In this document: positions 6,908-31,842 of the stretch, piece after piece
Numbering within the stretch: position 1 is the stretch's first letter
Layout of the letters: each line of letters starts with the position of its first letter
DNA from: Acaryochloris marina MBIC11017
Lineage (GTDB): Bacteria; Cyanobacteriota; Cyanobacteriia; Thermosynechococcales; Thermosynechococcaceae
Direction of reading: 5' to 3'
Length of the DNA: 32,000 bases
NCBI RefSeq assembly: GCF_000018105.1
Contig: NC_009925.1
Coordinates: forward strand, 4,740,001-4,772,000
Program-made: the position numbers and the translations under genes
Notes under the pieces: generated by a model
What the model was told of the DNA's origin: nothing
Databases searched by the model: none
The model's input: the letters and a program-made list of their open reading frames with translations, nothing else

Positions 6908-6913
6908 TCTGCT

Positions 6914-6950: not shown

Positions 6951-7011
6951 TTATCGCAGTCACACCAATTTTCTTAAAGCATTTTTTCTGAATTCAAAAG
7001 GTTTTCTCATC

Positions 7012-7572: not shown

Positions 7573-7579
7573 TGGACTG

Positions 7580-7626
7580 AGAGCTATGGGTGAAACCAAC
7601 TCTCTTTTCGGCTCACCCATAGCTCT
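7580..7626 (+). terminator. 14-bp perfect stem-loop just after the 7012 gene (terminator, processing or stability element)
   Basis: AGAGCTATGGGTGA (7580-7593) pairs with TCACCCATAGCTCT (7613-7626), with a 19-nt loop. No U-tract follows, so intrinsic termination is uncertain. Confidence 0.3.
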
Positions 7627-7814
7627 ACTATCACCGCCTTAAATTTAATTTCCCTTCGGGAAAATAGCATTCTTCAGGCTCAATTCGCAGCCTGATAGGG
7701 ATCTTATGCCCAAAAATACTTCTTTTACACCCATTTGAACCTGAAAAACACTGTTTTTCAACCTTGTGAAAGAGTCAGCGATTCTATCCGATTGTTCCAG
7801 AGGAGATATCTCCC

Positions 7815-13411: not shown

Positions 13412-13463
13412 CTGAACCTCTAACCCTGTCGTTCTCCCGGACTACGGGGTTAGCGCTATCTCA

Positions 13464-13502
13464 GACTTCACACCTAATTAAATGACTTCACACCTATTAA
13501 AT
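13464..13502 (+). repeat. Tandem direct repeat GACTTCACACCTA(A)TTAAAT x2 upstream of the 13535 gene
   Basis: Copy 1 at 13464-13483 and copy 2 at 13484-13502 differ by a single A indel. The core TTC(A/G)CACCTATTAA recurs as an inverted pair at 21307-21353. Confidence 0.8.
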
Positions 13503-13534
13503 CTCTACCTAGTTTGTATCCCCAAGAGGTAATC

Positions 13535-15247
13535 ATGAAATCTCGCGGCACGCTCCACTCCTCCCCCCGCCTTCCCCAGCCCTCTTCAGGAATGGCGATT
13601 GCCTGGGCTTCCTTAACCTCTTTGATCGCCATTTCAGGACTCCTTAGCCCTTGTCAGAAGGGGGACTGCACTGCCCATGCCCAAACCCCTAGGGCTACCC
13701 CTACCCCTGTTCAAGTCACGGTGAATAGTCCGTTGGATGGCGAAATTCAGGCCGATGAAGTGGTCACCCTACGAGAAGCGATCGCAATTACCAACGGCGT
13801 GCTCCATAAAGGCGACCTCAGCAAGGCAGAACGAGCCCAAATCTCTCCCAGCACAGATCATAGCCGGATCGATTTTGACTTGCCCAGCGATAACACCACG
13901 ATTCGATTGCAGGCCCTGCTGCCCACCATCACCAACCCCGGTCTTTTGATTGATGGCACCAGCCAAGCGGGTTATGCCCTTGTAGATGGTGACGCCAGTG
14001 CCCCGGCACCGGTCGTTGCCCTGACCCCAGCCGAGGATGTAGAGGTGTTTCGGGGATTAACCCTAGCCGCGGATCAGGTCCATATCAAAGCCTTGAGCCT
14101 TTATGGATTTACCTCCATCCATAAAACCACTGCGACAACACCACCTGCGGATATTTTTATTGCCCATCGGCTCCTGCCGTCCAAGCGTCTCAAAGAAGAC
14201 AACCCCCAAGTCACCTATCCCTACGATGACGAGCGGGATATTCCCCCCCAGGGCGTCATTATTGAGGATAACTATTTAGGGATTACACCCCAAGGAACTG
14301 CCCCTACTGCCCCTCGATCGGCCTTTGGTATATCCATTTACAACGCCATTGGCACGCGGATTCTCAACAACCGAATTGCTCAACATGATGGTAGCGCTGT
14401 AATTACCAGCATCCGCGCCGAACAAACGGAGATTGCCAACAACATCATTGAGCAGAATGGCTTGGCCGGAATGCCCGACGCCATCCGCCTAGAGGGGGAT
14501 ATTGATGGCACCAAAATCCATATGAATCAGATTCAACAGAATGCCGGTAGTGCTGTTTATCTCTTCAAGCCCGAAGGGTCAGTCATGGTTGAAAAGAACC
14601 TGATTGCAGACAATGGTCAACGTTTCCGTCGGGCCGCCATTTTGCTGATGGGGGATAATCACCATGTCGTCAACAACACCATTCAAGACCAACCGGGTCC
14701 AGGTGTGGTGATCACGTCTTATCCCACGAGCCAGCGCAACTATATCCTCGACAATCGATTTGCCAATCTTGACGGCCTCAGCATCGATTTGATTGCTCGT
14801 GAAAACCGTTTTCTTGACCGCTTCTCCCGCATCTCCATCAACCGCGTGGACTTAGCGGATCGATCCAGTACTAGAGTGCAAGACTACCAAGTCGGGGATG
14901 GTCCAAATCCCTTACGCAATTCAGACCAACGCAAGCGCGATACCGCCAACCGAGGCTTGAATACGCCTCAGTTTCTCAGCTCCGAATTTTACATTATGGA
15001 TGGGGCGGTCAACCTGGATGGGGAAGCCGATCCAGGGGCTGAAATTGTACTGTATAAGGTGATGGAAGAGGGTAAGCAAGGTCCTCTTAATGAGCCTGTC
15101 ACGATGGCCAAATCCGATGAAGAGGGGCGGTTTGCCATCACTCTCACGGACGCAAATCCAGGCGATCGGTTCAGTGCGATCGCAATTCATCCTGACTACG
15201 GCACCTCAGAGCCCGCTCGCAATGCCATTGTCTTAAATCTCAGATAA
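13535..15247 (+). CDS. Secreted right-handed parallel beta-helix repeat protein (NosD/pectin-lyase-fold-like) with a C-terminal Ig/carboxypeptidase-regulatory-like domain
   Basis: ATG 13535 is preceded by AAGAGG (13524-13529), so I prefer it to the TTG at 13514 used by the ORF track. Signal peptide: MAIAWASLTSLIAISGLLSP. Periodic beta-helix rungs: ILNNRIAQHDGSAV, IANNIIEQNGLAG, IHMNQIQQNAGSAV, VEKNLIADNGQRF, VVNNTIQDQPGPGV, ILDNRFANLDGLS. C-terminal motif: GEADPGAEIVLYKV...SDEEGRFAITL. Confidence 0.8.
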   Translation: MKSRGTLHSSPRLPQPSSGMAIAWASLTSLIAISGLLSPCQKGDCTAHAQTPRATPTPVQVTVNSPLDGEIQADEVVTLREAIAITNGVLHKGDLSKAERAQISPSTDHSRIDFDLPSDNTTIRLQALLPTITNPGLLIDGTSQAGYALVDGDASAPAPVVALTPAEDVEVFRGLTLAADQVHIKALSLYGFTSIHKTTATTPPADIFIAHRLLPSKRLKEDNPQVTYPYDDERDIPPQGVIIEDNYLGITPQGTAPTAPRSAFGISIYNAIGTRILNNRIAQHDGSAVITSIRAEQTEIANNIIEQNGLAGMPDAIRLEGDIDGTKIHMNQIQQNAGSAVYLFKPEGSVMVEKNLIADNGQRFRRAAILLMGDNHHVVNNTIQDQPGPGVVITSYPTSQRNYILDNRFANLDGLSIDLIARENRFLDRFSRISINRVDLADRSSTRVQDYQVGDGPNPLRNSDQRKRDTANRGLNTPQFLSSEFYIMDGAVNLDGEADPGAEIVLYKVMEEGKQGPLNEPVTMAKSDEEGRFAITLTDANPGDRFSAIAIHPDYGTSEPARNAIVLNLR

Positions 15248-15300
15248 AGCCGTTGCCACGTCTGAATTAACGGCTCATTCCTGATTTGTCTAAATCTTTT

Positions 15301-15345
15301 CTCTGATCTCACTTAAGAAAAGGAGTGAGATCAGAGTGTTTTGTT
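15301..15345 (+). terminator. Rho-independent terminator-like hairpin after the beta-helix gene
   Basis: CTCTGATCTCACT (15301-15313) pairs perfectly with AGTGAGATCAGAG (15324-15336), a 13-bp stem with a 10-nt loop. The T-rich run TGTTTTGTTCC follows. Confidence 0.65.
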
Positions 15346-15363
15346 CCTGTTCCTCAATGCATT

Positions 15364-17823
15364 ATGTTTTCATTCAATTGTTTTACCCAGAATTCCTATT
15401 GCCAAAATTCTCTCAAAAAATTAAAATATGCACTACGCAGTGCAAAATGGTTACCCGTTGCAACGTTTGCCGCTACAGCATTCAGTATTCTTGTAGCTCC
15501 TTCCGCAGCACTAGCCCAACGTAACTTTTCCCCACGTTTTAGCACTCAAGCTAGGGGGCGAACCACTATCTTCGGAAATCCGGTTACCACCTGTTCTTCG
15601 ACTATTGGTCCCAGAAGAGATATTTGTGCAGCGACTCAACAGGCGACGACAGGGAGTGGCATCGACTTCACCAACAACGGTTATTGGATGGACTATGTGG
15701 ACATTGATAGTGATGGCTCAACATTCAACTCCTCTTCAGTTACTTACAATTTCCCTACCGCGAATCCTGGCTTTAATATCGTCTGGGCAGGACTTTATTG
15801 GGCTGGGGAAACTTCAGCTGGCGCTGCAAGCGGTGGTATTCCTGCTGGTGAAGCAGCTATCGATGCTAGCAAGCGGAACGAAATGTTACTGCGTATTCCC
15901 GGATCATCAACCTATCAAACTATCACTGCAAGCACCTTAGATACGATCAATACAACCCGATATAGTGCTTTTGCGAATGTCACTTCTTTGGTGCAACAAG
16001 GGGGGAGTGGAACTTACTTTGGGGCCAATATTCAAACGGGGAAAGGTCGCGATCGCTATGGTGGCTGGGCGTTAATCGTCGTCTATCAAGATGATTCGGA
16101 AATACTGCGAAGTATGACTGTGTTTGATGGTTTTATTCAGGTTGGAAATAATATCGTTGATACTACAATCAGTGGTTTTCTAACTCCAAATGCCGGGCCG
16201 TTTGAAGCTGCATTCGGGGCGTTTATCAGTGAAGGAGATGTAGGCCTAACGGGTGACCAATTTTTGATTGATGGGGATGGTGCCAACTCCGATGGCGATG
16301 CAACGGACCAGCCTTTCGTCAATATTAGCGATGCCAATAGCCCGACGACCAATTTCTTTAACAGTTCAGCTTCTTTATTTGAGACGCGAATTGGAACCAA
16401 TACAACGGTCAACACGCCTGATGGCAAGACCCTCGGCCCCATTACCCGGAATCCCGATTATCCCAATTTGCTGGCCCTGGATATTGATATTGTGGAAGCA
16501 AAAGATGCGGCAAACAATGCGGTCATCCAAAACAACGCCACAGAAGCAGGACTGAGATTTACCAGTTCAGGGGATTTTTACTATCCCACCGCTTTCTTTT
16601 TCAGTGTTGAAGTCTTTCAACCCGTCTTGACCCAGAACTTCACCAAGACAGTGACGGATATCAACGGAGGCGATTTGAATCCCGGTGATATTTTGGAATA
16701 CACGATCACTTACCGAAATACCGGGAATGATGCGGCGACTGACGTTGTTTTGACGGATGACATTCCCACTCATACGTCTTACGAACCCAACTCTCTGGTC
16801 ATTACCACCGATCCTGATCCGACCCTGACGACTCCAGCGGCGATGGGAGATGGGACCGCAGATAATGATCGGGCTGAATTTGATAGCGTTAATAACCGCG
16901 TGGTTTTCCGGACAGGGATTGGAGCCAATGGGACCAATGGCGGAGAAGTTCCCTTTGACGACCCCAATACACCGATCGCAGAGAACGATACTGTCCAGGT
17001 CAAATTTAGAGTGAAAGTGGATGGTGATATTAACGTCTTTCCTACGACCATTTCTAACCAGGCCGCAATTGACTACAACGGTAAGTTCTCTGGCATTCCA
17101 TTCTCCGGGGTCAGTGATGACCCCACCACTCCCAATGATCCGAATGATCCGACGGATATAGATGTGGTTGAAGCCTCATCGCCCAACCTGATCTTGGTCA
17201 AACGCATCACGCGGATTAATGGCAGCACAGTCAATGGTGCCGTGAACCTAGAGAACTATGTGGATGATGCCAATAGCCCTTACGACGATAACGTGGACGA
17301 AATCCCCCCCTTTGCTGGACAATCTGATCCAAACCAGGATGACACCACCCACTGGCCAGATGCAGATGCAGCCAATGGCCCTGATGACTATCTAAAAGGA
17401 GCGATTGCTGCGGGTGAAGTCAAACCTGGAGATGAGGTTGAGTACACCATCTATTTCTTATCTACGGGGGGTAAGGATGCGATTGATGTACAGCTTTGTG
17501 ATAAAGTCCCTGCTTTGCAACGTTTTGTACTGGATGCTTATAACGCGGTAACGCCAGCGCCCAGTGGAGGTGTCGGGGCCAATCGGGGGATTGAAGTGGA
17601 GTATAACGGCACCATTTTGTCTTATACCAATGATGCCGATGGAGATACTGCTCAGTATTATCCACCTGGCTCAACTCTTCCTGCCCCTTGTAATAATGCC
17701 CCGGCTCAATCAGAAGACAATGGTGCTGTGGTGCTTGACCTAGGCACACTCCCTGAATCAACGGCTCCAGGAGCACCAACCGCCTCCTATGGCGCGTTGC
17801 GATTCCGGGCCAAGGTAAAGTAG
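15364..17823 (+). CDS. Secreted adhesin-like protein: N-terminal lectin/jelly-roll-like domain, DUF11 domain, and a C-terminal module shared with the 18194 gene
   Basis: The ORF-track start (GTG 15325) lies inside the terminator hairpin, so the first in-frame ATG at 15364 is preferred. Signal peptide: AKWLPVATFAATAFSILVAPSAALA. N-domain motifs: IVWAGLYWAGE and RYGGWALIVVYQD. DUF11 motif: DLNPGDILEYTITYRNTGNDAATDVVLTDDIP. Shared C-terminal module at 17182-17820. Confidence 0.8.
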   Translation: MFSFNCFTQNSYCQNSLKKLKYALRSAKWLPVATFAATAFSILVAPSAALAQRNFSPRFSTQARGRTTIFGNPVTTCSSTIGPRRDICAATQQATTGSGIDFTNNGYWMDYVDIDSDGSTFNSSSVTYNFPTANPGFNIVWAGLYWAGETSAGAASGGIPAGEAAIDASKRNEMLLRIPGSSTYQTITASTLDTINTTRYSAFANVTSLVQQGGSGTYFGANIQTGKGRDRYGGWALIVVYQDDSEILRSMTVFDGFIQVGNNIVDTTISGFLTPNAGPFEAAFGAFISEGDVGLTGDQFLIDGDGANSDGDATDQPFVNISDANSPTTNFFNSSASLFETRIGTNTTVNTPDGKTLGPITRNPDYPNLLALDIDIVEAKDAANNAVIQNNATEAGLRFTSSGDFYYPTAFFFSVEVFQPVLTQNFTKTVTDINGGDLNPGDILEYTITYRNTGNDAATDVVLTDDIPTHTSYEPNSLVITTDPDPTLTTPAAMGDGTADNDRAEFDSVNNRVVFRTGIGANGTNGGEVPFDDPNTPIAENDTVQVKFRVKVDGDINVFPTTISNQAAIDYNGKFSGIPFSGVSDDPTTPNDPNDPTDIDVVEASSPNLILVKRITRINGSTVNGAVNLENYVDDANSPYDDNVDEIPPFAGQSDPNQDDTTHWPDADAANGPDDYLKGAIAAGEVKPGDEVEYTIYFLSTGGKDAIDVQLCDKVPALQRFVLDAYNAVTPAPSGGVGANRGIEVEYNGTILSYTNDADGDTAQYYPPGSTLPAPCNNAPAQSEDNGAVVLDLGTLPESTAPGAPTASYGALRFRAKVK

Positions 17824-17872
17824 GCTTCTGTAACTTTGCCCCTAAAACCAATACTTAGCTAAATGCAGAGGC

Positions 17873-17919
17873 ATGAGTTCTAACAATGAACGGAACTCAT
17901 ACCTCGTTTATTTGTTTGT
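17873..17919 (+). terminator. Weak terminator-like hairpin after the 15364 gene
   Basis: ATGAGTTC (17873-17880) pairs with GAACTCAT (17893-17900), an 8-bp stem with a 12-nt loop. The T-rich run CGTTTATTTGTTTG follows. Confidence 0.4.
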
Positions 17920-17988
17920 ACTGGGCACACATTTGGCAAAAGTGAGTGGGGCTTTTTATTCACCCATGGCAAAAATGCGATTCAAAAG

Positions 17989-18043
17989 GTGAACTATAGC
18001 TATAGATGCGGACTATGGCTGTGGATAGTCAACTATAGCTATA
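17989..18043. promoter_or_regulatory. Cluster of palindromic operator-like sites about 150 nt upstream of the 18194 gene
   Basis: GT(G/C)AACTATAGCTATA occurs twice, at 17989-18004 and 18028-18043 (39-bp spacing). Each copy contains the self-complementary core TATAGCTATA; the first extends to the 12-bp palindrome CTATAGCTATAG at 17994-18005. Between the copies lies the inverted repeat GACTAT-N8-ATAGTC (18011-18030). Confidence 0.35.
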
Positions 18044-18193
18044 AAAAGTCTGCCTTAGGACCTCGACTGAGGGATCAAGATTAATGCTCTGAGCGATCTG
18101 ATTCGGGGTAAGAAGACTCTGGGATTTTCCTCTCAGAAAGCTCGTGCTGTCTTTGTTTCAGGTCGTTCAATATTAGCCAACATCCAGTAACTT

Positions 18194-21100
18194 ATGATGT
18201 TTCTCAAATTCTCTAAGCCATACTTGCCCGCTTCAATGACATTTAAGAAAATACTGACAGGTCTTATTCTATCTGGGGCTTTGGAAAGTGTTGGCTATGG
18301 CGGAGCATTACTGGCTAAGGAAACATACCCACACGCTCAGAAATATCAAGTCTCTGCCCATACCCTACTCCAAACTGACTTGGAGCAAACTTCAAATCCT
18401 CTTCATTCCGCTCGCGCAACGGATGTGGTGATTATTGATGCGGGTGTCACCAATTCCCATGCGTTGCTAAAAAATATCCCCAGTCAAGCAGCCGTTCACT
18501 ATCTCAGCCCAACTGGCGATGGATTGGAGCAGATTGGCGATATCCTCAGCAATTATCGAAATCTCAAATCAGTACATTTGCTGGCTCATGGCTCTTCAGC
18601 TCAATTGCAGCTAGGCAACTCATGGGTTAATCCCGCAACTCTCAACCATAGGGCCAAACAAGTTCAGTCGTGGCAAGCCGCGCTATCGCCAACAGCAGAT
18701 ATCTTTCTCTATGGCTGTCATGTTGCCTCTACTGTGGAAGGGAAAGCCTTTGTGTCTGACCTGGCCACTTTAACCGGCGCTGATATAGCTGCCTCAGATA
18801 ATCTGACAGGTGATGCAACCCAGGGTGGAGATTGGACCTTGGAGTATCAGTTGGGTGACCTAGAACCCCATAGGATTTCTCAGCAACTAGCCCTGTCGAA
18901 TTACGATCAGGTTTTGCAAGTTACCGTTCTCAATTTCAATGACCCAACGCCTTCTTTAGAGCCTGCCACAACGGACGTTTTTCGCTTTCAAAATGTCGCT
19001 ACTGTGGGTGGACAAAGTATTGACGCCCTAGTCACGGTTAGCAATATCAATAATGCAACCCTCACTAACTTGGATGATAATGGCTCTTTCCCTGAGCGAT
19101 TCCAACCTGTGATTCGTCATGATGGTGGAGCCAATGCCATCTCCTCTATCCGATTTGATTTTCAGCTCGTTCAAGCGGGAACAACAACTCCTTTAGCCGC
19201 GACCAATGTTTTTTTTAGTGCCCAAGACGTTGACGGTAATGGCTCTGCTAACTCTGTTAGAGAATTTGTAGAAGTCATTAACGCGGAAACTGTCTTTATC
19301 GACGACCCTACTTTTTTGGAACTCGCAGCCTCATTAGCAGGAGGAATCCGCCATCGAGTTATTAATTCCTCCAATGTGCAAAGTGGTATCGGTACGGACG
19401 ATCGCTACGAAATTTACAGTTACTTGGGGGATACCGTTACTAACTTTTCGATTGTTGCTGGTAATGATGTGGGATCTGCCAACTGTTCCGGGGCAAGCTG
19501 CCCTCGCCAAAACTCTTGGACCTTTGATATTTCCGATATTCAAGTGATCGATTTCAGTGATGCGCCATCTACTTATGGCGTTCCTTCCCATGCTGGCACT
19601 GCAGTGACTACGCTTCGACTCGGGACTGCAAGGGATGGGGATAGTGGTCCTATTCCTTCAGCCGATGCTTTAGGAGACGATAACAATGGCTCTGATGATG
19701 AGGATGGTGTTACCTTAGCCCCCCTCAATGCCAGTGATACCTCCTATTCGATTCAGGCATCGAGTCTTTCCGTCACCAATAGTACGGGAGGTCCAGCAAC
19801 CCTACACGCCTGGGTTGATTTTGATGGCAATGGTACTTTTGACTCCGATGAGTATACAAGTCAACCCGTACAGAACGGTATTAGTTCACCAGATGGAGCC
19901 TTAACCTGGTCGGGGGCTGGAGTAAGCGGAATGTCAGGGGGCACGACCACCTATGCGCGTTTCCGGATTACGACGGATGGGGGTATTAATGCCAATACTC
20001 CGGGTGGATTTGCCAGGGATGGTGAGGTGGAAGATCATGCCCTTGCGATCACAACTCCAGTCAATCCAGATATAGATAATAACTTCTGCCAGGTGAGCAG
20101 TGACATGATGTTTATCTTGGATAAATCGGGTTCCGTGAGTCTCAGTGAGCGACGATTACAACGAGATGCGGTTATGGCAATGCTCAATTACTTGGTCGAT
20201 AACAATATTACGTCTCGGGTAGGTATTGTCCGGTTTGACTCTACAAGTGCCACAGTGATCGGTTATACCGATGTAACGGCTGCTAATCTGCCTACTTTTG
20301 AAAGCGCCCTCAATACTAACTATGTCAATATTGGTGGGGGCGCCACCAATTGGGAAGCTGGATTCCAGCAGGCTATTTCCCTGGGGGTATCACCGGGCAG
20401 CCCTGATGTCGTTTTCTTCTTCGCTGATGGCAACATCAATTCGGGAGGCAGCCCGAACGATGAAGCGTTGCAATTCAAGCAGGCGGGTGCTCATATTTAT
20501 GGAATTGGTATCCAAAGTTTAGATATCGATGATTTCTTGGATATAACCGATGGTAGTAATACCACTCAATTTGACGCTGCGCTGGATAATGCTAATTCTG
20601 CCGATTATGTAGAAGTTAATAGCTATGACGACTTAGCGGACGATATGACCAGCTTGTTACGTTCACTTTGTCCACCTGCAACCAACAACCCCAATGTGTT
20701 ACTGGTCAAGCGGATCACCCGCGTGAATGGCCTCACAGAGAATGGGGGCACTAACCTCAATGTTTACGTTGATGACCCCAGCTACGAGTACGATGACAAT
20801 ACCCTCGGTAGCCCTGCGCCCACTCCCTTGGATACCGAATACTGGCCCACTCCAAGCACCTTTTTACTGGGGGCCACCAATGGAGGTCAAACCCGTCCAG
20901 GGGATGAAGTTGAGTACACCATCTATTTCCTATCAACGGGTACTTCAACGGCCGTGGGTGTTCAATTCTGCGATAAAGTTCCTAGTTTCCAAACCTTTGT
21001 GCCTGATGCGTTTAACGCCGTACCCCCTGCACCTAGTGGAGGCGTCGGAGCCAATCGGGGCATTGCAGTCGAATACAACGGCAGTCTTCTCTCATTTACC

Positions 21101-21295
21101 AACGATGCAGATGGAGATACCGCTCAGTATTATCCACCGGGTTCCACCTTGCCCGCAGTTTGTGATAATGCCCCCGCCCAAACAGAAGATAACGGTGCCA
21201 TCGTCGTCAACTTAGGTGATTTGCCCCAAGCAACGGGTGTAGGTACCCCGGCAACTTCTTATGGCGCCGTTCGGTTTCGGGCCAGAGTGAAGTAG
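18194..21295 (+). CDS. Large secreted modular adhesin-like protein: DUF4347, beta-sandwich region, GEVED domain, von Willebrand factor A domain, shared C-terminal module (1033 aa)
   Basis: DUF4347-like region at about 18419-18855: VVIIDAGV...SVHLLAHGSSAQLQLGN...DIFLYGCHVA...LATLTGADIAASDNLTG...GGDWTLEY. GEVED-type domain at about 19546-20050: DFSDAPSTYG...DDEDGV...WVDFDGNGTFD...YARFRIT...DGEVEDHAL. vWA domain with MIDAS at about 20102-20670: FILDKSGSVS...GGGATNWEAG...FFFADG. The start could instead be the ATG at 18236. Confidence 0.85.
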   Translation: MMFLKFSKPYLPASMTFKKILTGLILSGALESVGYGGALLAKETYPHAQKYQVSAHTLLQTDLEQTSNPLHSARATDVVIIDAGVTNSHALLKNIPSQAAVHYLSPTGDGLEQIGDILSNYRNLKSVHLLAHGSSAQLQLGNSWVNPATLNHRAKQVQSWQAALSPTADIFLYGCHVASTVEGKAFVSDLATLTGADIAASDNLTGDATQGGDWTLEYQLGDLEPHRISQQLALSNYDQVLQVTVLNFNDPTPSLEPATTDVFRFQNVATVGGQSIDALVTVSNINNATLTNLDDNGSFPERFQPVIRHDGGANAISSIRFDFQLVQAGTTTPLAATNVFFSAQDVDGNGSANSVREFVEVINAETVFIDDPTFLELAASLAGGIRHRVINSSNVQSGIGTDDRYEIYSYLGDTVTNFSIVAGNDVGSANCSGASCPRQNSWTFDISDIQVIDFSDAPSTYGVPSHAGTAVTTLRLGTARDGDSGPIPSADALGDDNNGSDDEDGVTLAPLNASDTSYSIQASSLSVTNSTGGPATLHAWVDFDGNGTFDSDEYTSQPVQNGISSPDGALTWSGAGVSGMSGGTTTYARFRITTDGGINANTPGGFARDGEVEDHALAITTPVNPDIDNNFCQVSSDMMFILDKSGSVSLSERRLQRDAVMAMLNYLVDNNITSRVGIVRFDSTSATVIGYTDVTAANLPTFESALNTNYVNIGGGATNWEAGFQQAISLGVSPGSPDVVFFFADGNINSGGSPNDEALQFKQAGAHIYGIGIQSLDIDDFLDITDGSNTTQFDAALDNANSADYVEVNSYDDLADDMTSLLRSLCPPATNNPNVLLVKRITRVNGLTENGGTNLNVYVDDPSYEYDDNTLGSPAPTPLDTEYWPTPSTFLLGATNGGQTRPGDEVEYTIYFLSTGTSTAVGVQFCDKVPSFQTFVPDAFNAVPPAPSGGVGANRGIAVEYNGSLLSFTNDADGDTAQYYPPGSTLPAVCDNAPAQTEDNGAIVVNLGDLPQATGVGTPATSYGAVRFRARVK

Positions 21296-24514: not shown

Positions 24515-27500
24515 TTAAGGCTCCCACAGCTTCACCGTCCGGTCGGAGCTGGCCGTGGCGATGGTGTTGCCATCTGGGCTATAGGTTACACTCAAGACCC
24601 GATTACTGTGTCCTTTGAGGGTTTGTAACTCCTTGCCATCGGCGCTCCACAGCTTCACCGTTTCATCATTACTGGCTGTGGCAATGGTTTTGCCATCCGG
24701 GCTATAGGTCACACTCCTAACCGGAGCACTGTGTCCTTTGAGGGTCTGTAATTCCTTGCCATCGGTGCTCCACAGCGTCACTGTCTGGTCATCACTGGCT
24801 GTGGCAATGGTTTTGCCATCCGGGCTATAGGTCACACTCCTAACCGGAGCACTGTGTCCTTTGAGGGTCTGTAATTCCTTGCCATCGGCGCTCCACAGCT
24901 TCACCGTTTCATAATTACTGGCTGTGGCAATGGTTTTGCCATCCGGGCTATAGGTTACAGCACTGTGTCCTTTGAGGGTCTGTAATTCCTTGCCATCGGC
25001 GCTCCACAGCTTCACCGTGCCGTCAAAACTGGCTGTGGCAATGGTTTTGCCATCCGGGCTATAGGTCACACTCCTAACTGAACCACTGTGTCCTTTGAGG
25101 GTTTGTACCTCCTTGCCATCAGCGCTCCACAGCTTCACCGTGCCGTCATCACTGGCTGTAGCAATGGTTTTGCCATCCGGGCTATAGGTTACACCCCAGA
25201 CCGCAGCATTGTGTCCTTTGAGGGTCCGTAACTCCTTACCATCGGCGCTCCACAGCTTCACCGTGCCGTTATCACTGGCTGTGGCAATGATTTTGCCATC
25301 CGGGCTATAGGTCACACTCAAGACCAGAGCTTCAACAGTTAGTTGACTGATGCCATCCCGAATTTGAAAGCTTTCTTGGTCAAGTAATTTTGCTTTTGTA
25401 TAAGGATCATAGTCTAGTGATGCCCCCCATTTTTTCGCTAGATTAAACAAATCAACCGCTGTTGTGATTTGACCTTGTTTTGCCGCTATTTCAGCCTGCT
25501 CAAGTAAAGCAGGTATAGCCTTAGCTCTTAGTGCAGGCTTAAGTCTAAGACAAACATCCAGATCTCTAAGCAGTAAAGGTTCTCGGATCAAATAATCGTC
25601 AAGCCAGTGACAAGCAATATTCAATAATTTCTCAACGTCCAGTATCCACAGCTTCACCGTGCCGTCAGAACTGGCTGTGGCAATGGTTTTGCCATCCGGG
25701 CTATAGGTCACACTCCTAACCGGAGCACTGTGTCCTTTGAGGGTCTGTAATTCCTTGCCATCGGCACTCCACAGCTTCACCGTGCCGTCAGAACTGGCTG
25801 TGGCAATGGTTTTGCCATCCGGGCTATAGGTCACACTCCTAACCGGAGCACTGTGTCCTTTGAGGGTCTGTAACTCCTTACCATCGGCGCTCCACAGCTT
25901 CACCGTATTGTCATCACTGGCTGTGGCAATGGTTTTGCTATCTGGGCTATAGGTCACACTATTGACCAAATCACTGTGTCCTTTGAGGGTCTGTAATTCC
26001 TTGCCATCGGCGCTCCACAGCTTCACCGTTGCATCATTACTGGCTGTGGCAATGGTTTTGCCATCCGGGCTATAGGTCACACTATTGACCAAATCACTGT
26101 GTCCTTTGAGGGTCTGTAATTCCTTGCCATCGGCGCTCCACAACTTCACTGTCTTGTCATCACTGGCCGAGGCGATGGTTTTGCCATCTGGGCTATAGGT
26201 CACACTCCTGACCGCAGAACTGTGGCCCAATAAGCGCTCTTGCTCACGCACCCCATAGATAACGTCTCGCATAGCAGCTAATGCTTGCATAGTCACAACG
26301 CCATCAAGATCCTCTGACTGGAGTCTTTGACCCGTTTTGACAGCTTCAATCACCGCATCTTTCTCAAAAAATGCCGCTTTATAGTTCAGCATCGCGAAGC
26401 TGGATGCCACTACCTGAGCATTCTTTTCTCCTCTAAGCGCAGCTTGTTGCCCTTTTATCGCAGCTTGTCGCATGGACAGCGCAATTCCTCCAGCAATGAT
26501 TGCCAGAACTGCTAATCCACCTAAACCGACAGCAGCAAACCTTGCCTGTCGTAACTGCTTTGTTTCCGCACCCTGCCGACGTTCACGCTCTTCCTCTAGT
26601 TGAACCATCAGAGGTCGTTGGGTTTCCCGGATAAACGCAGCGATAAAGTCATGAAAAAGCTGGTACCGAATATGATCTTGATCTTGCAGCTCTAGTACAA
26701 CACCTGACTTTAATAAGATTGTCGAGACTTGCTGCCACCGCGATTCATCTTTTTCTACCCCATTCCCCAATGGTTGAATCGCATTCAACAACTCGGATCG
26801 AGTCAGCAGGGGACGAGTGCCCTTAGCATCCGTTAAAGAAAATAGAATTAAGTCGGCAAGTTTCTGAGCATCAGCGTCGCCACATGCAGACACCACCGAT
26901 CTTAGAAAGCGATCAACGAAAGTATTTTTATCACCTTGGCGTTGATAGGCTTCTAGGGTCTCAATCCCTTCTTCCTGTAGCTGAGTCCCAATTACTTGGA
27001 GTTCAACAGGGCGGACTTCTCCTTCAGTCGCTAAGTCTTCAACTAGCTCCTGAACTAATTGTTCCTCTAGTTGAAATTGAGTCTCCTGACTTAATTCATA
27101 GATAATTTTTTTGGCCCGCTGAACCGAAAAATTTCCCAGATAGTAGCGGTGACGGGGACTTAAAATATTTTGTAAGGCATCAGCACTGGTCTCGTTATTC
27201 GCCTCTAACCGCTCACACTCCAACAGTGTATGGAGATAGTCCTCCCGCAAGGACAGCGATATTTTGACATGATGTAGGGCATCAGAATCCATACAATGTC
27301 GTAGAAAAGCCCAAAATTGCTCACGAATGGCTAACGTCGTGGCAAAGAAAAATTCTTCAAATTGGTCAAATATCAACAGGACCTGGCAATTTCCTTTGCT
27401 TAGTGCCACCAGTCTATTAACTAATCCCGCGAAGCTTTCTTTTTGATCATCAGCTTGTTCTGCATCCGAAGTAACCGATGTAGCCATAACGGAAGCTAGG

Positions 27501-29344
27501 CTTTCCTCTTCCGCAAACGATTCTAAGCCGTGAATTGCTACACTTTGCCAATCGGTGTAGCGATTGATCAGAATGGGCGCAATACGTTGAGTTTCGATCC
27601 GCTGCTGCCTCAGCTTTGGCAACAGACTTGATCGAATTAAGGAGCTTTTACCCACACCAGACTGGCCATAAAGAACCATTAAACGGATATCAGAACGCAA
27701 AATCAGCCGAATAACTGCTTCCAAATCTTGCAATCGCCCGGCTGAAGTCACTTGACGTTCCAAAGACTCTAAGGGTTGGTTTTCAGTTGGTATCGGATCA
27801 AAAATTTGGGTCGTTGCCCGTAACGCTGGTAATTTGAACTCGAATTCATCAGAATGTTGAATCGCGTACAACAATCGCATTGAAAACGGTACAAATTTAT
27901 ATTGATATTGAATCCATCGTTTTTGCTGCTCAAACTGGAATGCTCTCACAACATTCCCTTTCTGGCGGTAAAGCTGGGCTAAACAATCGCAAATATCAAT
28001 CTGCAATTGCGGGTCACGCTGCGGATCGCTTTCCTCACATAATTCCAAGCTCGCGATTGCAGATTCCAAGTTACCTTGATGCTGGTAAGCTTTGGCTAAC
28101 AATAAGCGATAGAGAGCTTGGCGAGGAACGTGCTGAATATCGGCTTGCTCTAGGATTTCTAGCGCCTTTTGAGAATGCTGCACAGCCTGGTCCCATTGTT
28201 GACAATGCAAGGCAACCTCTGCCAGATACCCATAGTCACGAGCCAGATAAATTTCAGGATAAGTTTTCCTGGCGGTGATTTGCGTCCTACCCTCCGCTGC
28301 TCCAACATTAAGCTGCTGAGACTCTGCAATAAATGCTTTGGTCTGGTGAAATGTTAGGGCTTGTTGGGTGATCTTTTGCAGTTCATCCCATTTAGCCTGT
28401 TGACGCAGGATTTCACATAAGTCCCCCATAAATCTGGCGACTAAATCCTGGCGCTGCCCCTGTTCAAAGGCCCCTAGGCTTAATTCCATCAGCTCTTGGG
28501 CTTGACGCCAATCCCAGCGATTTCGCCACCAATACAGGCTTGGATCAGCGGCACATCGAGCCATACGAAAGTAGAGAATGCCGATTTCCCCGGACTGGTA
28601 GGCTGCCTCACTTCCATGGGCTTTTCGATAGCCCAGAACAGACTCAAAACAGGTTTTTGCGCTCTCCCGATCACCTGTTGATACTGCCCAATAGCCCTGG
28701 ACTAAATCGACAGTGGCAATTTGTTCCGCAGATAGCTGCGATCTCCGTTCCGCCAAATCATTGAGGATTAGCCTTAGTTCGTTCTTCTGACTGCCCTTCA
28801 CCGTGTCATCAACGGTTCCTTGCTGGTGCAAATCCTGTGCCAAAATCTGGTCTGCAACCGTTTCTACCGAGTCGTAGAGGGGCTCAATCGGTAAGGGAAA
28901 AGAGATCGTATCAGCCCAGCTAAATAAGTCTGACGCTAACCGAATCATTATTTGCAAACTTTCATCCGTTAGCCAAAGTACAAGGGGAAAATCAAATTGA
29001 CGGAATTCTTCCCGGACAACGTTGGTCGCCGTCAATAGCTCTTCTACGCTGGTATGTTCTTCCAATCCCTCGACCATCAGCGCCGGAGGAGAAGTCTTGC
29101 GGGCTTGTTGCAAGATAAATTGCAGCAAGCGCTCCTCATCCTTTGGCAATATGGCGAGTTCAAAACTACTGGAGTGCTCAGTTCGTAATTCTTGCACCAG
29201 TAATCTACGCAGGCTAACGGAATTACAGATCGCCAGAACCAGCGTAAATTCACCTTGAGAAAACTGCAGGATGCGGCTCATCTCCCGCAAGGGTTGAGCA
29301 TAAATCCCTAAATCAATTTGGGACCAATCAAACTCTAAACTCAC
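24515..29344 (-). CDS. Giant signal-transduction NTPase: N-terminal alpha/beta domain + TPR region, STAND P-loop NTPase (nSTAND1-like), one TM helix, 12 WD40 repeats in two blocks (1609 aa)
   Basis: GTG start at 29342-29344 overlaps the upstream TGA (GTGA). Walker A: LYGQSGVGKSSL (27644-27667). Walker B: VLLIFDQFEEFF (27353-27382). This pair of motifs matches what I recall for the novel STAND NTPase 1 family. TPR-like helices are at about residues 200-480. TM helix: FAAVGLGGLAVLAIIAGGIALSM. WD40 units: GHSxxVxSVTYSPDGKTIATASxDxTVKLWSADGKELQTLK. Confidence 0.9.
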   Translation of the reverse strand: MSLEFDWSQIDLGIYAQPLREMSRILQFSQGEFTLVLAICNSVSLRRLLVQELRTEHSSSFELAILPKDEERLLQFILQQARKTSPPALMVEGLEEHTSVEELLTATNVVREEFRQFDFPLVLWLTDESLQIMIRLASDLFSWADTISFPLPIEPLYDSVETVADQILAQDLHQQGTVDDTVKGSQKNELRLILNDLAERRSQLSAEQIATVDLVQGYWAVSTGDRESAKTCFESVLGYRKAHGSEAAYQSGEIGILYFRMARCAADPSLYWWRNRWDWRQAQELMELSLGAFEQGQRQDLVARFMGDLCEILRQQAKWDELQKITQQALTFHQTKAFIAESQQLNVGAAEGRTQITARKTYPEIYLARDYGYLAEVALHCQQWDQAVQHSQKALEILEQADIQHVPRQALYRLLLAKAYQHQGNLESAIASLELCEESDPQRDPQLQIDICDCLAQLYRQKGNVVRAFQFEQQKRWIQYQYKFVPFSMRLLYAIQHSDEFEFKLPALRATTQIFDPIPTENQPLESLERQVTSAGRLQDLEAVIRLILRSDIRLMVLYGQSGVGKSSLIRSSLLPKLRQQRIETQRIAPILINRYTDWQSVAIHGLESFAEEESLASVMATSVTSDAEQADDQKESFAGLVNRLVALSKGNCQVLLIFDQFEEFFFATTLAIREQFWAFLRHCMDSDALHHVKISLSLREDYLHTLLECERLEANNETSADALQNILSPRHRYYLGNFSVQRAKKIIYELSQETQFQLEEQLVQELVEDLATEGEVRPVELQVIGTQLQEEGIETLEAYQRQGDKNTFVDRFLRSVVSACGDADAQKLADLILFSLTDAKGTRPLLTRSELLNAIQPLGNGVEKDESRWQQVSTILLKSGVVLELQDQDHIRYQLFHDFIAAFIRETQRPLMVQLEEERERRQGAETKQLRQARFAAVGLGGLAVLAIIAGGIALSMRQAAIKGQQAALRGEKNAQVVASSFAMLNYKAAFFEKDAVIEAVKTGQRLQSEDLDGVVTMQALAAMRDVIYGVREQERLLGHSSAVRSVTYSPDGKTIASASDDKTVKLWSADGKELQTLKGHSDLVNSVTYSPDGKTIATASNDATVKLWSADGKELQTLKGHSDLVNSVTYSPDSKTIATASDDNTVKLWSADGKELQTLKGHSAPVRSVTYSPDGKTIATASSDGTVKLWSADGKELQTLKGHSAPVRSVTYSPDGKTIATASSDGTVKLWILDVEKLLNIACHWLDDYLIREPLLLRDLDVCLRLKPALRAKAIPALLEQAEIAAKQGQITTAVDLFNLAKKWGASLDYDPYTKAKLLDQESFQIRDGISQLTVEALVLSVTYSPDGKIIATASDNGTVKLWSADGKELRTLKGHNAAVWGVTYSPDGKTIATASDDGTVKLWSADGKEVQTLKGHSGSVRSVTYSPDGKTIATASFDGTVKLWSADGKELQTLKGHSAVTYSPDGKTIATASNYETVKLWSADGKELQTLKGHSAPVRSVTYSPDGKTIATASDDQTVTLWSTDGKELQTLKGHSAPVRSVTYSPDGKTIATASNDETVKLWSADGKELQTLKGHSNRVLSVTYSPDGNTIATASSDRTVKLWEP
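24518..25318 (-). repeat. Intragenic tandem array, WD40 block 2: seven 123-nt units (first N-terminally truncated, one 12 nt shorter, last C-terminally truncated)
   Basis: The 123-nt periodicity is read directly. For example, CCACAGCTTCACCG recurs at 24524 and 24647. The units are nearly identical at nucleotide level. Confidence 0.95.
25646..26227 (-). repeat. Intragenic tandem array, WD40 block 1: five 123-nt units
   Basis: 25646-25750 and 25769-25873 are identical over 105 nt. The whole adjacent units differ at 3 of 123 positions. Confidence 0.95.
26471..26539 (-). other. Single predicted transmembrane helix separating the NTPase module from the WD40 modules
   Basis: Encodes FAAVGLGGLAVLAIIAGGIALSM (23 hydrophobic or small residues). 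It is preceded by the Arg/Lys-rich stretch EERERRQGAETKQLRQAR. Confidence 0.7.
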
Positions 29345-30681
29345 CGCAGCTCCTCAGCATCCGTCAGGATGGGATTGATATCAAACCAAGACTGCTCTTC
29401 ATCCCGATATTCAAAGACAAACAAGCTGCGCAGCAGGGTTTGATAGGCATCTTCACCTCGGACAGCTTTACTCTCTCTAACCTGGCGCAACAACTCCCAT
29501 TCGTCAGCAGTAATGGGTTTGCTCAAATCATAACGACGTTGGCTAATCACTTGCTCTAGCAACTTGCTCGACACCGGGGGGTCATCTTTCTTTAGGCAGC
29601 CATGCATTAACACCAGTAAGTTGCGCACATGTCCCCCACTGGTTTGGCAAAGGCGTTCTAAAGTCGCTTCCGAATCAAACAGTTCTGATAACTGGTCTTG
29701 TCCAGCTCGTACTAAAATCATTTGTTTTAGCGCTGCCATCCCGGCCTCGCAGCTACTCTGATCTCGATTCTGCACACGCACCATCGGCAGCAGTTGAGGA
29801 TCTGAACCAAACCGATTGGATAGCCGTTCTTTCTCGTTGGAAAAGGCAAGAACTAAGGGAATTGTATAGATAACGTGACAAGTAAGTTGCTTTAGTTGCT
29901 CACCCCGATCCACAAATAAATATTCAGGTTGAGAACGATTGGGCAGCTTTTCCAGATTGTCAATCCGGTCCAGATTATCCACAATCACGACGAGACCCGC
30001 TTTCCCTTGCTGTTGCAGTTGAGTTTTTGCTGGCACCATAATTTCAGTATTAATGGCTTCTAAGATGGTATTCACCCTAGGTTCCAAATGACTGCGCAAC
30101 AGTGAGCGAACTTCTTTACTATCCCGAGACTTCGTCGTCAATTCGCCAATCCCAAAGGCCAGGGAATATTCACCATCCTTATGGCTCATTCCTACCTTGC
30201 TATCCAGGGCTGGAATATTTAATTTCAGGCCAGTCACTTCTGAGTTGAGTAAATCAACCGCACCGTGCAGAATTTTCTGGAAGCGTGTAGGTTCAAGGCA
30301 AATATCAGCCTGGGCCAAACTTTGGGTGATTTGACGGGCAATCACCAGCAAAATATCACTGATATCCACATCGGCCAGATCTAACTCTTCAGAGGATTCG
30401 AAAAAAACCACATGATAGTTTAAGTCTTCCAATTCCTGTTTCAGACGGGATAATTCCGTGGACTTCCCGCAACCAATATGTCCCGTAAATAATTGACAGG
30501 TGGCATCATCCCCAGACAAGTTAATGGTGCGCCGGAGTTCTTTCACCACATCGTTCCCCCGCACCGCAGCAAAATCGATATAGCAGGCACGGTCCTTTGC
30601 ATCCCCATAATTTAGGGTTTTGCTGGGATTACAAGCCCGAAACAACTGCCCGACATTCAAAACCATGGTTCTCACTGGCAA
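29341..30681 (-). CDS. P-loop ATPase (AAA+/ORC-Cdc6-like or STAND-related), 446 aa, translationally coupled to the WD40 NTPase gene
   Basis: Walker A: FTGHIGCGKSTEL (30457-30483 encodes GHIGCGKST). Walker B: GLVVIVDNLDRI. The lid-like motif QTSGGHVRNLLVLM is reminiscent of the GDxR region of Orc1/Cdc6-type AAA+ proteins. The stop overlaps the downstream GTG start. Confidence 0.85.
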   Translation of the reverse strand: MPVRTMVLNVGQLFRACNPSKTLNYGDAKDRACYIDFAAVRGNDVVKELRRTINLSGDDATCQLFTGHIGCGKSTELSRLKQELEDLNYHVVFFESSEELDLADVDISDILLVIARQITQSLAQADICLEPTRFQKILHGAVDLLNSEVTGLKLNIPALDSKVGMSHKDGEYSLAFGIGELTTKSRDSKEVRSLLRSHLEPRVNTILEAINTEIMVPAKTQLQQQGKAGLVVIVDNLDRIDNLEKLPNRSQPEYLFVDRGEQLKQLTCHVIYTIPLVLAFSNEKERLSNRFGSDPQLLPMVRVQNRDQSSCEAGMAALKQMILVRAGQDQLSELFDSEATLERLCQTSGGHVRNLLVLMHGCLKKDDPPVSSKLLEQVISQRRYDLSKPITADEWELLRQVRESKAVRGEDAYQTLLRSLFVFEYRDEEQSWFDINPILTDAEELR

Positions 30682-30901
30682 TACAATTTGCTTTCATCAT
30701 GCCAAAAGTAAGTACAGAAGACTGAAAAATTTACAAGGTTATAGATGCCTTGTTCACAAAATCTCCATAAATCAGCAAGAGAGTATTTTTAGTACAGGAC
30801 AACACTTTTGTGAGCTAGCTAGGGGTATGTTGTGAAGGAAATCACGAACCCTCACGACTAGATCCAATATTTTTCTAGTCAATAGTTCTAATTATGCTGC
30901 A

Positions 30902-31354
30902 TTAGCCCCCTAAATCCCCCATTCTGGGGGACTTTGAGTGTCTATCAATGCTTTGCTCGCTCGCCTGTCGGATTTGCTGAAGTACATGATCGAGGTGGTG
31001 CATAACGTCTGAGTTATGGAATCGGATCACTCGGTAACCCAGCTGGTTGAGCTGTTCGGTACGGGCTTCATCATATTCCACCTGCTGATTGTGGATGTCG
31101 CCGTCTAGCTCAATCACTAATCGGCATTGGGGACAGTAAAAATCGACAATGAACGAACCAATGGCGTGTTGACACCGGAATTTCAGGCCGCTGAGTTGAC
31201 GTTTTTGCAGTGCTTTCCACAGCTTTTGTTCTGCTGGCGTTAGATTGAGTCTTAGTTGTCGCGCGGCGGCAACGACGGCTGGGGTTGTGCCGCGAATGCG
31301 GTGGTGTTGTGTCTGTTTCTCTCGCATCGTGTTACCCCCAACCCTGTTTCCCAT
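30902..31354 (-). CDS. DUF559 / Vsr-like endonuclease-fold protein
   Basis: LTPAEQKLWKALQ...FRCQHAIGSFIVDFYCPQCRLVIELDGDIHNQQVEYDEARTEQLNQLGYRVIRFHNSDV matches the DUF559 pattern (xVDFYC...IExDG..H...YD..R...L...G..V.RF). The start could instead be the ATG at 31327. The last 11 codons (SPRMGDLGG and neighbours) are encoded by the left inverted repeat. Confidence 0.8.
   Translation of the reverse strand: MGNRVGGNTMREKQTQHHRIRGTTPAVVAAARQLRLNLTPAEQKLWKALQKRQLSGLKFRCQHAIGSFIVDFYCPQCRLVIELDGDIHNQQVEYDEARTEQLNQLGYRVIRFHNSDVMHHLDHVLQQIRQASEQSIDRHSKSPRMGDLGG
30905..30938. repeat. Left 34-bp inverted repeat flanking the DUF559 gene
   Basis: GCCCCCTAAATCCCCCATTCTGGGGGACTTTGAG is the exact reverse complement of 31372-31405. 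It contains an internal CCCCC-N5-GGGGG mini-hairpin. Confidence 0.95.
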
Positions 31355-31371
31355 CTAGGATAATCATAAAT

Positions 31372-31405
31372 CTCAAAGTCCCCCAGAATGGGGGATTTAG
31401 GGGGC
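31372..31405. repeat. Right 34-bp inverted repeat flanking the DUF559 gene
   Basis: CTCAAAGTCCCCCAGAATGGGGGATTTAGGGGGC is the exact reverse complement of 30905-30938. Confidence 0.95.
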
Positions 31406-31842
31406 GGATGCAGGGTTTAACGGAGCTTCCAAAACAACTTCTCAACACCGCTCATGATGACGGCAGAGGGTGATGGCTTTAAGTTTTGTACTGCACTGAG
31501 GAGAGCATTACACTCAAGCGCCAACCAACATTGGCGTAATATGACACAAAAAAGTGCTTAACCCCAGACAATGCGATCACGCTAGAAAATTTATAAATAA
31601 AGGGATAGCTCAATACATCGGCTGTCAATTCTGATTTTTGGTCACAAACCTGGAATATCAATCACATCTTCTCCAAAGTGATTTCAAAACATATATTGCG
31701 CGTTATTTCTTCCAGAAATACCTGAAAAAATCCGATTGCGGCAACAGCGCTTGTCCTCCACACTGAGAGTAGCTCAATGCAAGCGAATCACAGATTGACT
31801 GAGCTTGCAGAAAAGTACGAGGTCTAGAGGAGTGGAAATGCT

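Follow-up and report, generated by a model that had tools for sequence, protein, structure and literature searches.

Two overlapping NTPase genes of the cyanobacterium Acaryochloris marina MBIC11017 raise the question of what kind of system they form, and whether it serves conflict with non-self or resident signalling. Both genes are located on the minus strand of a 32,000-nucleotide stretch of contig NC_009925.1 (positions 4,740,001 to 4,772,000), hereafter the window, to whose first letter all coordinates refer. Gene A (29341..30681) encodes a partner AAA+/STAND-KAP-like ATPase. Gene B (24515..29344) encodes a protein of 1609 amino acids (aa) in which an N-terminal α/β domain (N1), TPR-like helices, an nSTAND1 NTPase, a predicted transmembrane (TM) helix and WD40 repeats follow one another, as assigned from the open reading frame (ORF) and Pfam. 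A sequence-only reading of the window had taken the pair for a candidate conflict or defence sensor. Comparison with homologous loci identifies A-B as an undescribed relative of STAND/NLR-type systems that consists of two genes and combines a new domain at the N-terminus with a dedicated ATPase partner and, in most cases, a membrane-spanning topology; no description of the A-B pair, of N1 or of a TM nSTAND1-WD40 receptor was found in searchable papers. We give an even chance to the account in which the pair is a self-contained two-gene NTPase module, gene B being the sensor-switch and gene A the output or transducer ATPase coupled to it through N1-TPR.

The gene pair and its conservation

The two minus-strand reading frames overlap by GTGA at 29341..29344 (-), where the stop codon of gene A (TGA) and the start codon of gene B (GTG) are interlocked, exactly as the sequence-only reading had described. 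Its length of 446 aa for gene A holds for the longest ORF, which begins at a TTG at 30681, but the database start is the ATG at 30666, giving a likely product of 441 aa. This product is 100% identical to ABW29705.1, WP_261891269.1 and BDM78604.1 (441 aa, database record P0001), and gene B is identical to AM1_4732. The N-termini of homologues align with gene B from residue 1, so the overlapping GTG start is supported. The same overlap of -4 (or -8) is seen again in many homologous loci and on plasmid pREC1, and such an arrangement allows, to judge from the sequence, translational coupling of A and B. A promoter and terminator scan around the genes gave counts at or below chance and was uninformative.

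In a species-representative genome set, at least 594 genomic stretches carry a gene A homologue, and the best 80 loci were inspected. In 51 of the 80, gene A is directly followed on its own strand by a gene that carries N1 and, usually behind it, TPR, nSTAND1 and WD40, and a -4 overlap is frequent; a further six loci end at a contig edge. Viewed from the other side, a gene A homologue stands beside the N1 gene in every context examined. Even the divergent N1 proteins P0121 (N1+TPR only, cut off beside a transposase) and P0122 (N1+TPR+nSTAND1 without a sensor) both have a gene A homologue upstream, at 48-49% identity. Several A/B paralogues occur per genome, and the plasmid copies are paired too. 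On pREC1 of A. marina, the A/B pair has a -4 overlap, its gene B is a 1920-aa WD40 giant, and its surroundings contain two integrases, HicAB, a NACHT protein and a zeta toxin; a Nostoc plasmid also has an A/B pair, with its gene B mis-annotated as 'ribosome assembly protein 4'. The genes are thus conserved as neighbours, so that the lack of such conservation, named in the sequence-only reading as grounds for refutation, does not apply. The proposal of a partner ATPase is likewise supported. The A/N1 family is essentially confined to cyanobacteria, and the loci recovered are mostly from filamentous or colonial members.

No third gene is broadly conserved across the 80 loci, and DUF559, which has a gene close to gene A in the window, is absent from all of them. 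A and B alone therefore make up the system, and the DUF559 cassette, which happens to lie next to them, is rejected as a part of it. Variant arrangements were also observed. Two B-type genes surround a single gene A in L045 (4940-9682 and 11436-16316) and L062 (11362-16116 and 17080-21354). In L085, a B-type gene reduced to N1+TPR (6001-9201) lies beside a DDE transposase, and a 224-aa ORF that looks membrane-embedded lies between A and B. Database names for B-type proteins are inconsistent or wrong: 'ribosome assembly protein 4', 'TniB family NTP-binding protein' and 'hypothetical protein'.

Domain architecture of the two proteins

N1 occupies approximately residues 12-173 of gene B (28826..29311 (-)), as delimited by alignment A2 and an AlphaFold2 (AF2) model. 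In this model of N1+TPR (pLDDT 75), built from a 3-sequence alignment, the secondary structure runs in the order α0-β1-α1-β2-α2-β3-α3-β4-α4-β5 without a P-loop, and TPR-like helices come next. The motifs FSLILxxCN(Y/S), ALMVxGLE, NxVREEFR and FPLVLW are conserved in alignment A2. Residues 1-200 have no Pfam match, scans of 24 N1 sequences gave nothing consistent, and a PDB profile search with N1 returned only sub-significant matches (E of at least 0.19). The modelled order of elements is compatible with a P-loop-less AAA+-like core, and the STAND-TPR structure 6mfv (rank 18, TM-score 0.27) is the only Foldseek match that hints at a NOD-like N1. TPR proteins dominate the Foldseek matches of the N1+TPR model, including the TPR domains of LGN and kinesin light chain, and N1 is classed as an unassigned domain. 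A relationship of N1 to gene A as a degenerate P-loop domain was considered and rejected (hhalign of N1 against the gene A profile, probability 0.4%).

A word-indexed homologue search found no match with N1 alone and two with N1+TPR. An exhaustive phmmer search of 1.84 billion representatives located N1 in 834 representative clusters, at the extreme N-terminus in every one. Among the 91 listed N1 representatives of at least 1000 aa, nSTAND1 is present in all 91, TPR is detectable in 89, and 76 end in WD40; the remaining long proteins end in TPR arrays, NACHT with NCH2, CHASE2 or a Ser/Thr kinase, the last with HRD and DFG motifs and apparently active by sequence. The N-terminal domain had been likened to those of cyanobacterial TPR/CHAT/STAND proteins; its association with TPR and nSTAND1 is confirmed, but N1 with CHAT was not found, and representatives of at least 1000 aa carry N1 only alongside nSTAND1. 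The N1-TPR-nSTAND1 core is thus constant, and, as is the case for NLRs, the module at the C-terminus can be exchanged.

The TPR-like α-helical repeat region (residues ~184-496; 27857..28795 (-)) is matched by Pfam TPR_12, TPR_8 and other TPR families at residues 373-447, is all-helical in the AF2 model and is supported by Foldseek. The following NTPase module (residues 536-855; 26780..27739 (-)) matches nSTAND1, PF20703, with E=2.1e-24 and 87.3 bits against a cut-off of 27.1; homologues P0196, P0206, P0219, P0216, P0250 and P0152 match the same family. Its Walker A motif GQSGVGKSS (residues 560-568; 27641-27667 (-)), of the form GxxGxGKS/T, and the acidic Walker B motif LLIFDQFEE (residues 656-664; 27353-27379 (-)) are intact. 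The domain order of gene B and its nSTAND1 assignment, as read from the sequence, are thus confirmed, and all motifs quoted for both genes are present in the translations. Gene B joins a NOD to a repeat sensor that varies among homologues, the tripartite organization of STAND/NLR proteins. At its N-terminus, no effector or adaptor (EAD, Death-like, TIR, nuclease or protease) was detected by Pfam, PADLOC or PDB search, and the earlier remark that neither A nor B has a recognisable effector domain stands by Pfam and PADLOC.

Between the NTPase and the WD40 repeats, residues 936-958 (26471..26539 (-)) form a predicted single TM helix, FAAVGLGGLAVLAIIAGGIALSM, a 23-residue hydrophobic helix with a mean Kyte-Doolittle (KD) value of 2.32 over 19 residues and a basic flank ahead of it. 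An equivalent helix is located between STAND and WD40 in 30 of 40 full-length gene B homologues, with lysine and arginine richer on the N-terminal side, which indicates an N-in orientation; the other 10 have no helix. The number of helices follows the C-terminal module: WD40 is preceded by one, the kinase by two adjacent helices (a hairpin) and NACHT by none, and CHASE2 has one before and approximately three after, which is the canonical CHASE2 topology. This dependence on the C-terminal module argues for a genuine membrane span, and its absence from 10 of 40 homologues indicates that the span is common and not essential to the core mechanism. The WD40 propellers of gene B in the window are accordingly predicted from the sequence to lie outside the cytoplasm (N-in, C-out).

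The WD40 region has a period of 41 aa and 12 units, the number given in the sequence-only reading; they do not form one array, however, and not all are of full length. Array 1 contains five near-identical 41-aa units (residues 1038-1234; 25643..26233 (-)), a helical spacer of 101 aa follows (residues 1235-1335; 25340..25642 (-)), and array 2 contains seven units, one of them 4 aa short (residues 1336-1609; 24518..25339 (-)), as assigned by Pfam and repeat analysis. At the DNA level, identity between units is 71-96%, truncated and frame-shifted units excluded. Among the nine regular units, six codon columns within GHSxxVxSV...ASxDxT...SxDG have 146 nonsynonymous and 6 synonymous pairwise differences, against 112 nonsynonymous and 151 synonymous in the other columns. 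The hypervariability that had been claimed for these superstructure-forming repeats is thereby confirmed. Judged from WD40 structure and the fungal HNWD genes, most of the six variable positions sit in loops, on that face of the propeller which binds ligands. The spacer segment is present in some homologues (phmmer; L002 and L006). Unit 5 continues into a helical segment (LDVEKLLNIACHWLDDYL...) that resembles a protein C-terminal tail, with seven units after it; the first unit of array 2 is without the GH dipeptide, and another unit has a 4-aa deletion. The sequence of this region suggests two propeller cassettes joined by recent recombination or duplication.

In gene A, the Walker A motif GHIGCGKST (residues 67-75; 30457..30483 (-)), the Walker B motif VVIVDNLD (residues 231-238; 29968..29991 (-)) and the lid motif SGGHVRNL (residues 348-355; 29617..29640 (-)) are present in the translation. 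In alignment A1, G67, H68, G70, C71, G72, K73 and T75 of Walker A, V232, D235, L237, D238 and R239 at Walker B, and S348, G349, G350, H351 and R353 of the lid are invariant. Across 22 diverse homologues, no variation is seen in Walker A, Walker B, CHVIYTIP and SGGHxR, and gene A is therefore probably a catalytically competent ATPase, as far as sequence can tell. The lid motif occupies the place of the STAND GxP or sensor-2 motif. In the AF2 model (pLDDT 69), an AAA+-type core is followed by a helical lid with SGGHVRNL and a small helical C-terminal domain, which is possibly winged-helix-like. The model also has a helical insertion with a long hairpin between Walker A and Walker B (residues ~107-224; 30010..30363 (-)), formed by helices 107-124, 132-148, 174-187 and 189-224, with a block pLDDT of up to 91.

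Gene A had been read as 'ORC/Cdc6-like'. ORC and Cdc6 chains are indeed among the top Foldseek matches to its model in the PDB (TM-score 0.31-0.37), but RuvBL, mS29/DAP3, PAB2304 (2qen), RFC, BrxC and Apaf-1 match equally, all with TM-scores of 0.3-0.4; furthermore, gene A has no ORC/Cdc6 Pfam family, and a PDB profile search gave no significant match. Because other AAA+ and STAND folds match equally, the label is valid only as a generic AAA+/STAND-type ATPase with a lid and a helical C-terminal domain. The match to PAB2304 links gene A to the archaeal ATPase_2 or PAB2304-type STAND-like ATPases. The large insertion is a feature common to gene A and the KAP family, and its site parallels that of the KAP-type insert. 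TM segments are typical of the KAP insertion, whereas the insertion of gene A has none: no hydrophobic segment was found in gene A at a KD threshold of 1.8, and the insertion is modelled as soluble helices.

Profile searches place gene A near the same families. Pfam matches to ATPase_2, AAA_22, NPHP3_N and nSTAND5 each fall under their cut-offs, so that no Pfam score of the window gene A reaches the gathering threshold; a search of NCBIfam gave no match. Across gene A and its homologues, matches to KAP_NTPase and ATPase_2 range from weak to moderate. PF07693 (KAP_NTPase) is absent from the matches of the window gene A at E<=0.01 and is precomputed on many homologues; it is listed unmarked on the L085 homologue, and on the ternary-system relative described below its score is 34.4 bits, where the cut-off is 20. 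The gene A family gave more than 3,500 matches, the top 120 of which are approximately 450 aa long and 56-89% identical. Its database names, too, are inconsistent or wrong: 'AAA family ATPase', 'glycosyltransferase family protein', 'KAP family NTPase' and 'GTPase SAR1 family protein'.

Comparison with known conflict and defence systems

A relative of gene A is found in a ternary conflict system. On plasmid p057_J of Nostoc sp. C057, a VMAP-M1+VMAP-C gene is followed by a MoxR ATPase and then by a 974-aa 'SAV_2336 N-terminal domain-related' protein (L083:5288-8212), the C-terminal ~400 aa of which align with residues 36-439 of gene A at 26% identity (E=8e-24). The motifs GHxGxGKTTEL, IVDGLDR, CHIIYTIP, SGGxxRDL and WFDVNPIL are common to both proteins, the lid motif of the ternary-system homologue being SGGIMRDL. 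In VMAP ternary systems, the position after MoxR is given to a variable set of predicted effectors that includes STAND NTPases (Kaur et al. 2020, eLife; PMC7159879). The A-like module thus fills the effector position, and an A-type module is common to two kinds of NTPase systems, both NTP-dependent, multi-component and present in cyanobacteria. In A-B, by contrast, gene A encodes a free-standing ATPase whose partner is an nSTAND1 protein, and none of the vWA-MoxR ternary genes (MoxR, vWA, VMAP/iSTAND) flanks the pair in the window or is conserved in related loci. An FGE-family gene and a HEAT-repeat gene lie near the 974-aa protein.

nSTAND1 was named within predicted counter-invader systems (Kaur, Iyer, Burroughs, Aravind 2021, eLife; PMC8195603). 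Gene B follows the same NLR-like tripartite logic of N-terminal module, NOD and variable C-terminal repeat or sensor, and the A/B family has in common with these systems a bias to multicellular bacteria. In the published cases, N-terminal EAD, Death-like or enzymatic effectors are combined with C-terminal lectin or FGS sensors, whereas gene B carries N1 and TPR; in addition, A/B contributes an upstream ATPase gene and often a TM helix ahead of the sensor. Avs and bNACHT proteins likewise join a STAND switch to a repeat sensor with modular sensor swapping. However, they are single cytoplasmic polypeptides with a recognisable N-terminal effector (nuclease, protease, TIR or similar) that sense intracellular phage proteins; in A/B no such effector was found, gene linkage makes a second ATPase a requirement, and a location outside the cytoplasm is predicted for the sensor. 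In the fungal HET-E/NWD (HNWD) proteins, a NOD is followed by highly similar WD40 repeats that vary at a few positions per repeat, as in gene B, but these proteins are cytoplasmic, use NACHT with HET or other death effectors, and have neither a partner ATPase nor a TM helix.

Two further candidates were set aside. The nSTAND2 'two-STAND-gene' system belongs to a different clade, as far as the accessible part of the source goes (Kaur 2021). The two-gene membrane system of EACC1 is rejected because its components differ: it combines a small single-TM protein with a caspase-fused partner (PMC7159879), whereas gene A is a soluble 441-aa ATPase, and gene B has no caspase. PADLOC, a defence-system search that the sequence-only reading had suggested, gave no real match for either gene: gene A was matched only by mad8 (E=0.0015) and PDC-S20 (E=0.0036).

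Proposed mechanism and competing roles

In the account to which we give an even chance, the nSTAND1 module of gene B would be a nucleotide-driven oligomerisation switch, and its C-terminal module would be an exchangeable ligand sensor, here two propeller-forming WD40 arrays placed outside the cytoplasm by the single TM helix. The constant N1-TPR would sit where NLRs carry an effector or adaptor, and gene A, as an obligate partner, would be made in fixed proportion to gene B through translational coupling. Upon binding of a ligand to the WD40 face, a signal would cross the membrane, and nSTAND1 would exchange nucleotide and oligomerise; the clustered N1-TPR modules would then recruit or activate gene A, which would deliver an ATP-dependent output on a conserved cellular target. 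We infer the contact between A and N1-TPR, the direction of signalling, what the ligand and the output are, and whether the role is one of conflict (phage or non-self sensing at the envelope) or signalling of another kind.

Several observations weigh against this account or against a role in defence. Gene A is assigned as the output by elimination, because no catalytic effector beyond its ATPase motifs is recognised, and its task could instead be to load gene B, to act as its chaperone or to set its threshold. Confidence in the two structure models is moderate (pLDDT 69 and 75), and the TM prediction is based on hydropathy and the positive-inside pattern only. PADLOC matched gene B only with HEAT-ARM_XIII, driven by the WD40 repeats, and its N-terminal 1000 aa only with NsnB (E=0.033). 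The window neighbours of A/B are surface proteins, a kinase and a rhodanese, and the window is not a defence island, although the pREC1 copy lies amid mobile and toxin genes. Conservation of gene A is strong (71% mean identity per alignment column, 56-70% between members of different orders), its tree roughly tracks taxonomy, and its inheritance is largely vertical. Many copies of gene A occupy syntenic chromosomal sites beside ftsQ-ftsZ, glcE/glcF, thiD, aroE and minCDE, the upstream genes having been recognised by eye from translations. Approximately 23 of the 80 loci have an orphan gene A with no adjacent gene B, and gene A can therefore persist without a neighbouring gene B. The orphans are derived clades in the gene A tree, mainly Microcoleus/Oscillatoriales, with shikimate dehydrogenase (aroE), DJ-1/PfpI, an ApcE-like linker and FtsQ as neighbours (by eye from translations).

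The orphan loci are L009, L012-L014, L016, L020-L024, L028, L031, L032, L036, L037 and L039, together with L043, L044, L048, L049, L051, L052 and L055. Orphan paralogues are 52-60% identical, with no B-type gene nearby, and many of them, mainly of the Microcoleus type, lie in the order ApcE-like linker, DJ-1/PfpI, A, aroE and a small predicted secreted protein. In several lineages of Oscillatoriales type, gene A adjoins divergent ftsQ-ftsZ both in paired loci (L017, L038, L059, L072, L077 and L080) and in orphan loci (L012 and L022); thiD lies beyond ftsQ-ftsZ in most of those paired loci, and the L086 pair adjoins minCDE. The location near division genes may be mere synteny or could hint at the process on which gene A acts.

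As to the biological role, we lean slightly to conflict or non-self sensing at the envelope. The points for it are the nSTAND1 clade, the hypervariable sensor, sensor swapping, the multiple paralogues, with plasmid copies in mobile or defence-like settings among them, and the A-like module in a ternary system. Tentatively, A-B would represent an unnamed 'outside-in' NLR class, in which a periplasmic sensor of hypervariable WD40 propellers detects either extracellular or envelope-borne non-self (for instance phage particles or injection machinery) or determinants of neighbouring cells, and a new adaptor domain, N1-TPR, passes the signal to an AAA+ executioner or transducer, the ATPase module being reused as a VMAP-MoxR effector.

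A resident signalling module fits the conservation, synteny and orphan-A data at least as well as defence does, and a defence or conflict function accordingly stays a hypothesis. We regard as possible, though doubtful, a non-defence pathway of envelope or environment sensing (for instance of contact between cells, of the state of the envelope or of division, or of a cue from outside) that leads to neither death nor immunity, with gene B as a STAND-type receptor like the MalT/AfsR regulators and gene A as a downstream ATPase acting on a housekeeping process. The strong conservation and taxonomy-following tree of gene A, its syntenic sites beside housekeeping genes and its orphans in such contexts are what this explanation would have; the CHASE2 and active-looking Ser/Thr kinase variants of gene B are classic signalling modules, and the lack of a toxic effector, of a real PADLOC match and of a defence-island setting agrees with it, as does the phage collection, in which no homologue of gene A was found. 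It fits less well with the focused nonsynonymous WD40 variation, which resembles the sensors of allorecognition or immune NLRs and not receptors of fixed ligands, nor with several paralogues per genome and plasmid copies amid integrases, HicAB, NACHT and zeta toxin. Also against it are the VMAP-MoxR ternary conflict system that includes an A-like module, next to an FGE-type gene, and the definition of nSTAND1 in a conflict-system context (PMC8195603). The earlier proposal of a conflict or defence sensor is partly supported.

In an explanation that we consider unlikely, gene B alone would be an NLR-like killer whose clustered TM helices perturb the membrane, and gene A would only load, reset or restrain it as a chaperone or threshold-setter, by analogy with MoxR in ternary systems or TRIP13 in CBASS. 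Threshold-setting chaperones of the AAA+ type do occur in related conflict systems (PMC7159879), gene A has an AAA+ fold without another catalytic domain, tight translational coupling would suit a stoichiometric regulator, and 30 of 40 gene B homologues have the hydrophobic helix. The other 10, and likewise the NACHT and some TPR variants, have no helix between STAND and the C-terminal module, while A, N1, TPR and nSTAND1 are constant, and the helix therefore cannot be the conserved output of gene B. In addition, a different C-terminal module comes with a different helix number, exactly as expected of a topological anchor and not of a pore-former, and the A-like module in the ternary system takes the effector position and not that of the chaperone, that system having its own MoxR.

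Kin or non-self allorecognition, a particular role within the sensor-switch account given an even chance above and modelled on the fungal HET-E/NWD NLRs but sensing across a membrane, is improbable: extracytoplasmic WD40 propellers would recognise polymorphic surface or periplasmic determinants of neighbour cells, in keeping with near-identical units that vary mainly at GHSxxVx and ASxDxT (the pattern reported for fungal HNWD genes), with the predicted outside location of the sensor and with the mostly filamentous or colonial hosts, but Acaryochloris is unicellular, cytoplasmic (TM-less) variants exist and no partner 'antigen' locus is evident.

Neighbouring genes and significance

The DUF559 gene (Vsr-like endonuclease fold; 30902-31354 (-)) is bounded by 42-nucleotide inverted repeats at 30897-30938 and 31372-31413, which are 95% complementary; the 3' repeat encodes a C-terminal ...SPRMGDLGG, and gene and repeats together look like a small mobile cassette. 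Such an endonuclease-fold neighbour in a repeat-bounded cassette had been counted among the hallmarks of a conflict system; the inverted repeats are real, but DUF559 recurs in none of the related loci and so does not mark this system. Further away, a run of genes at 4292-21295 (+) encodes large proteins that are predicted to be secreted or to lie at the surface (DUF7925, DUF11, right-handed β-helix/NosD-like and DUF4347-GEVED-VWA). Genes for an NlpC/P60 peptidase and a Ser/Thr kinase come before the run, which may be a cell-surface gene cluster. The segment 2952-4292 has a GC content of 0.39, against ~0.49 elsewhere, and no ORF of at least 100 aa.

STAND/NLR receptors are generally taken as cytoplasmic sensors that carry their own effector, and A/B departs from this picture in three ways. 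An obligatory second ATPase takes the place of a recognisable effector; a family-specific, unannotated domain, N1, travels only with gene A; and a membrane span in most members would put a hypervariable sensor outside the cytoplasm. If the role is immune or allorecognitive, NLR biology would extend to sensing across a membrane, and the A-type module in ternary conflict systems would gain a function. If it is housekeeping signalling, cyanobacteria would have in the pair a conserved regulator whose genes often lie next to those for division.

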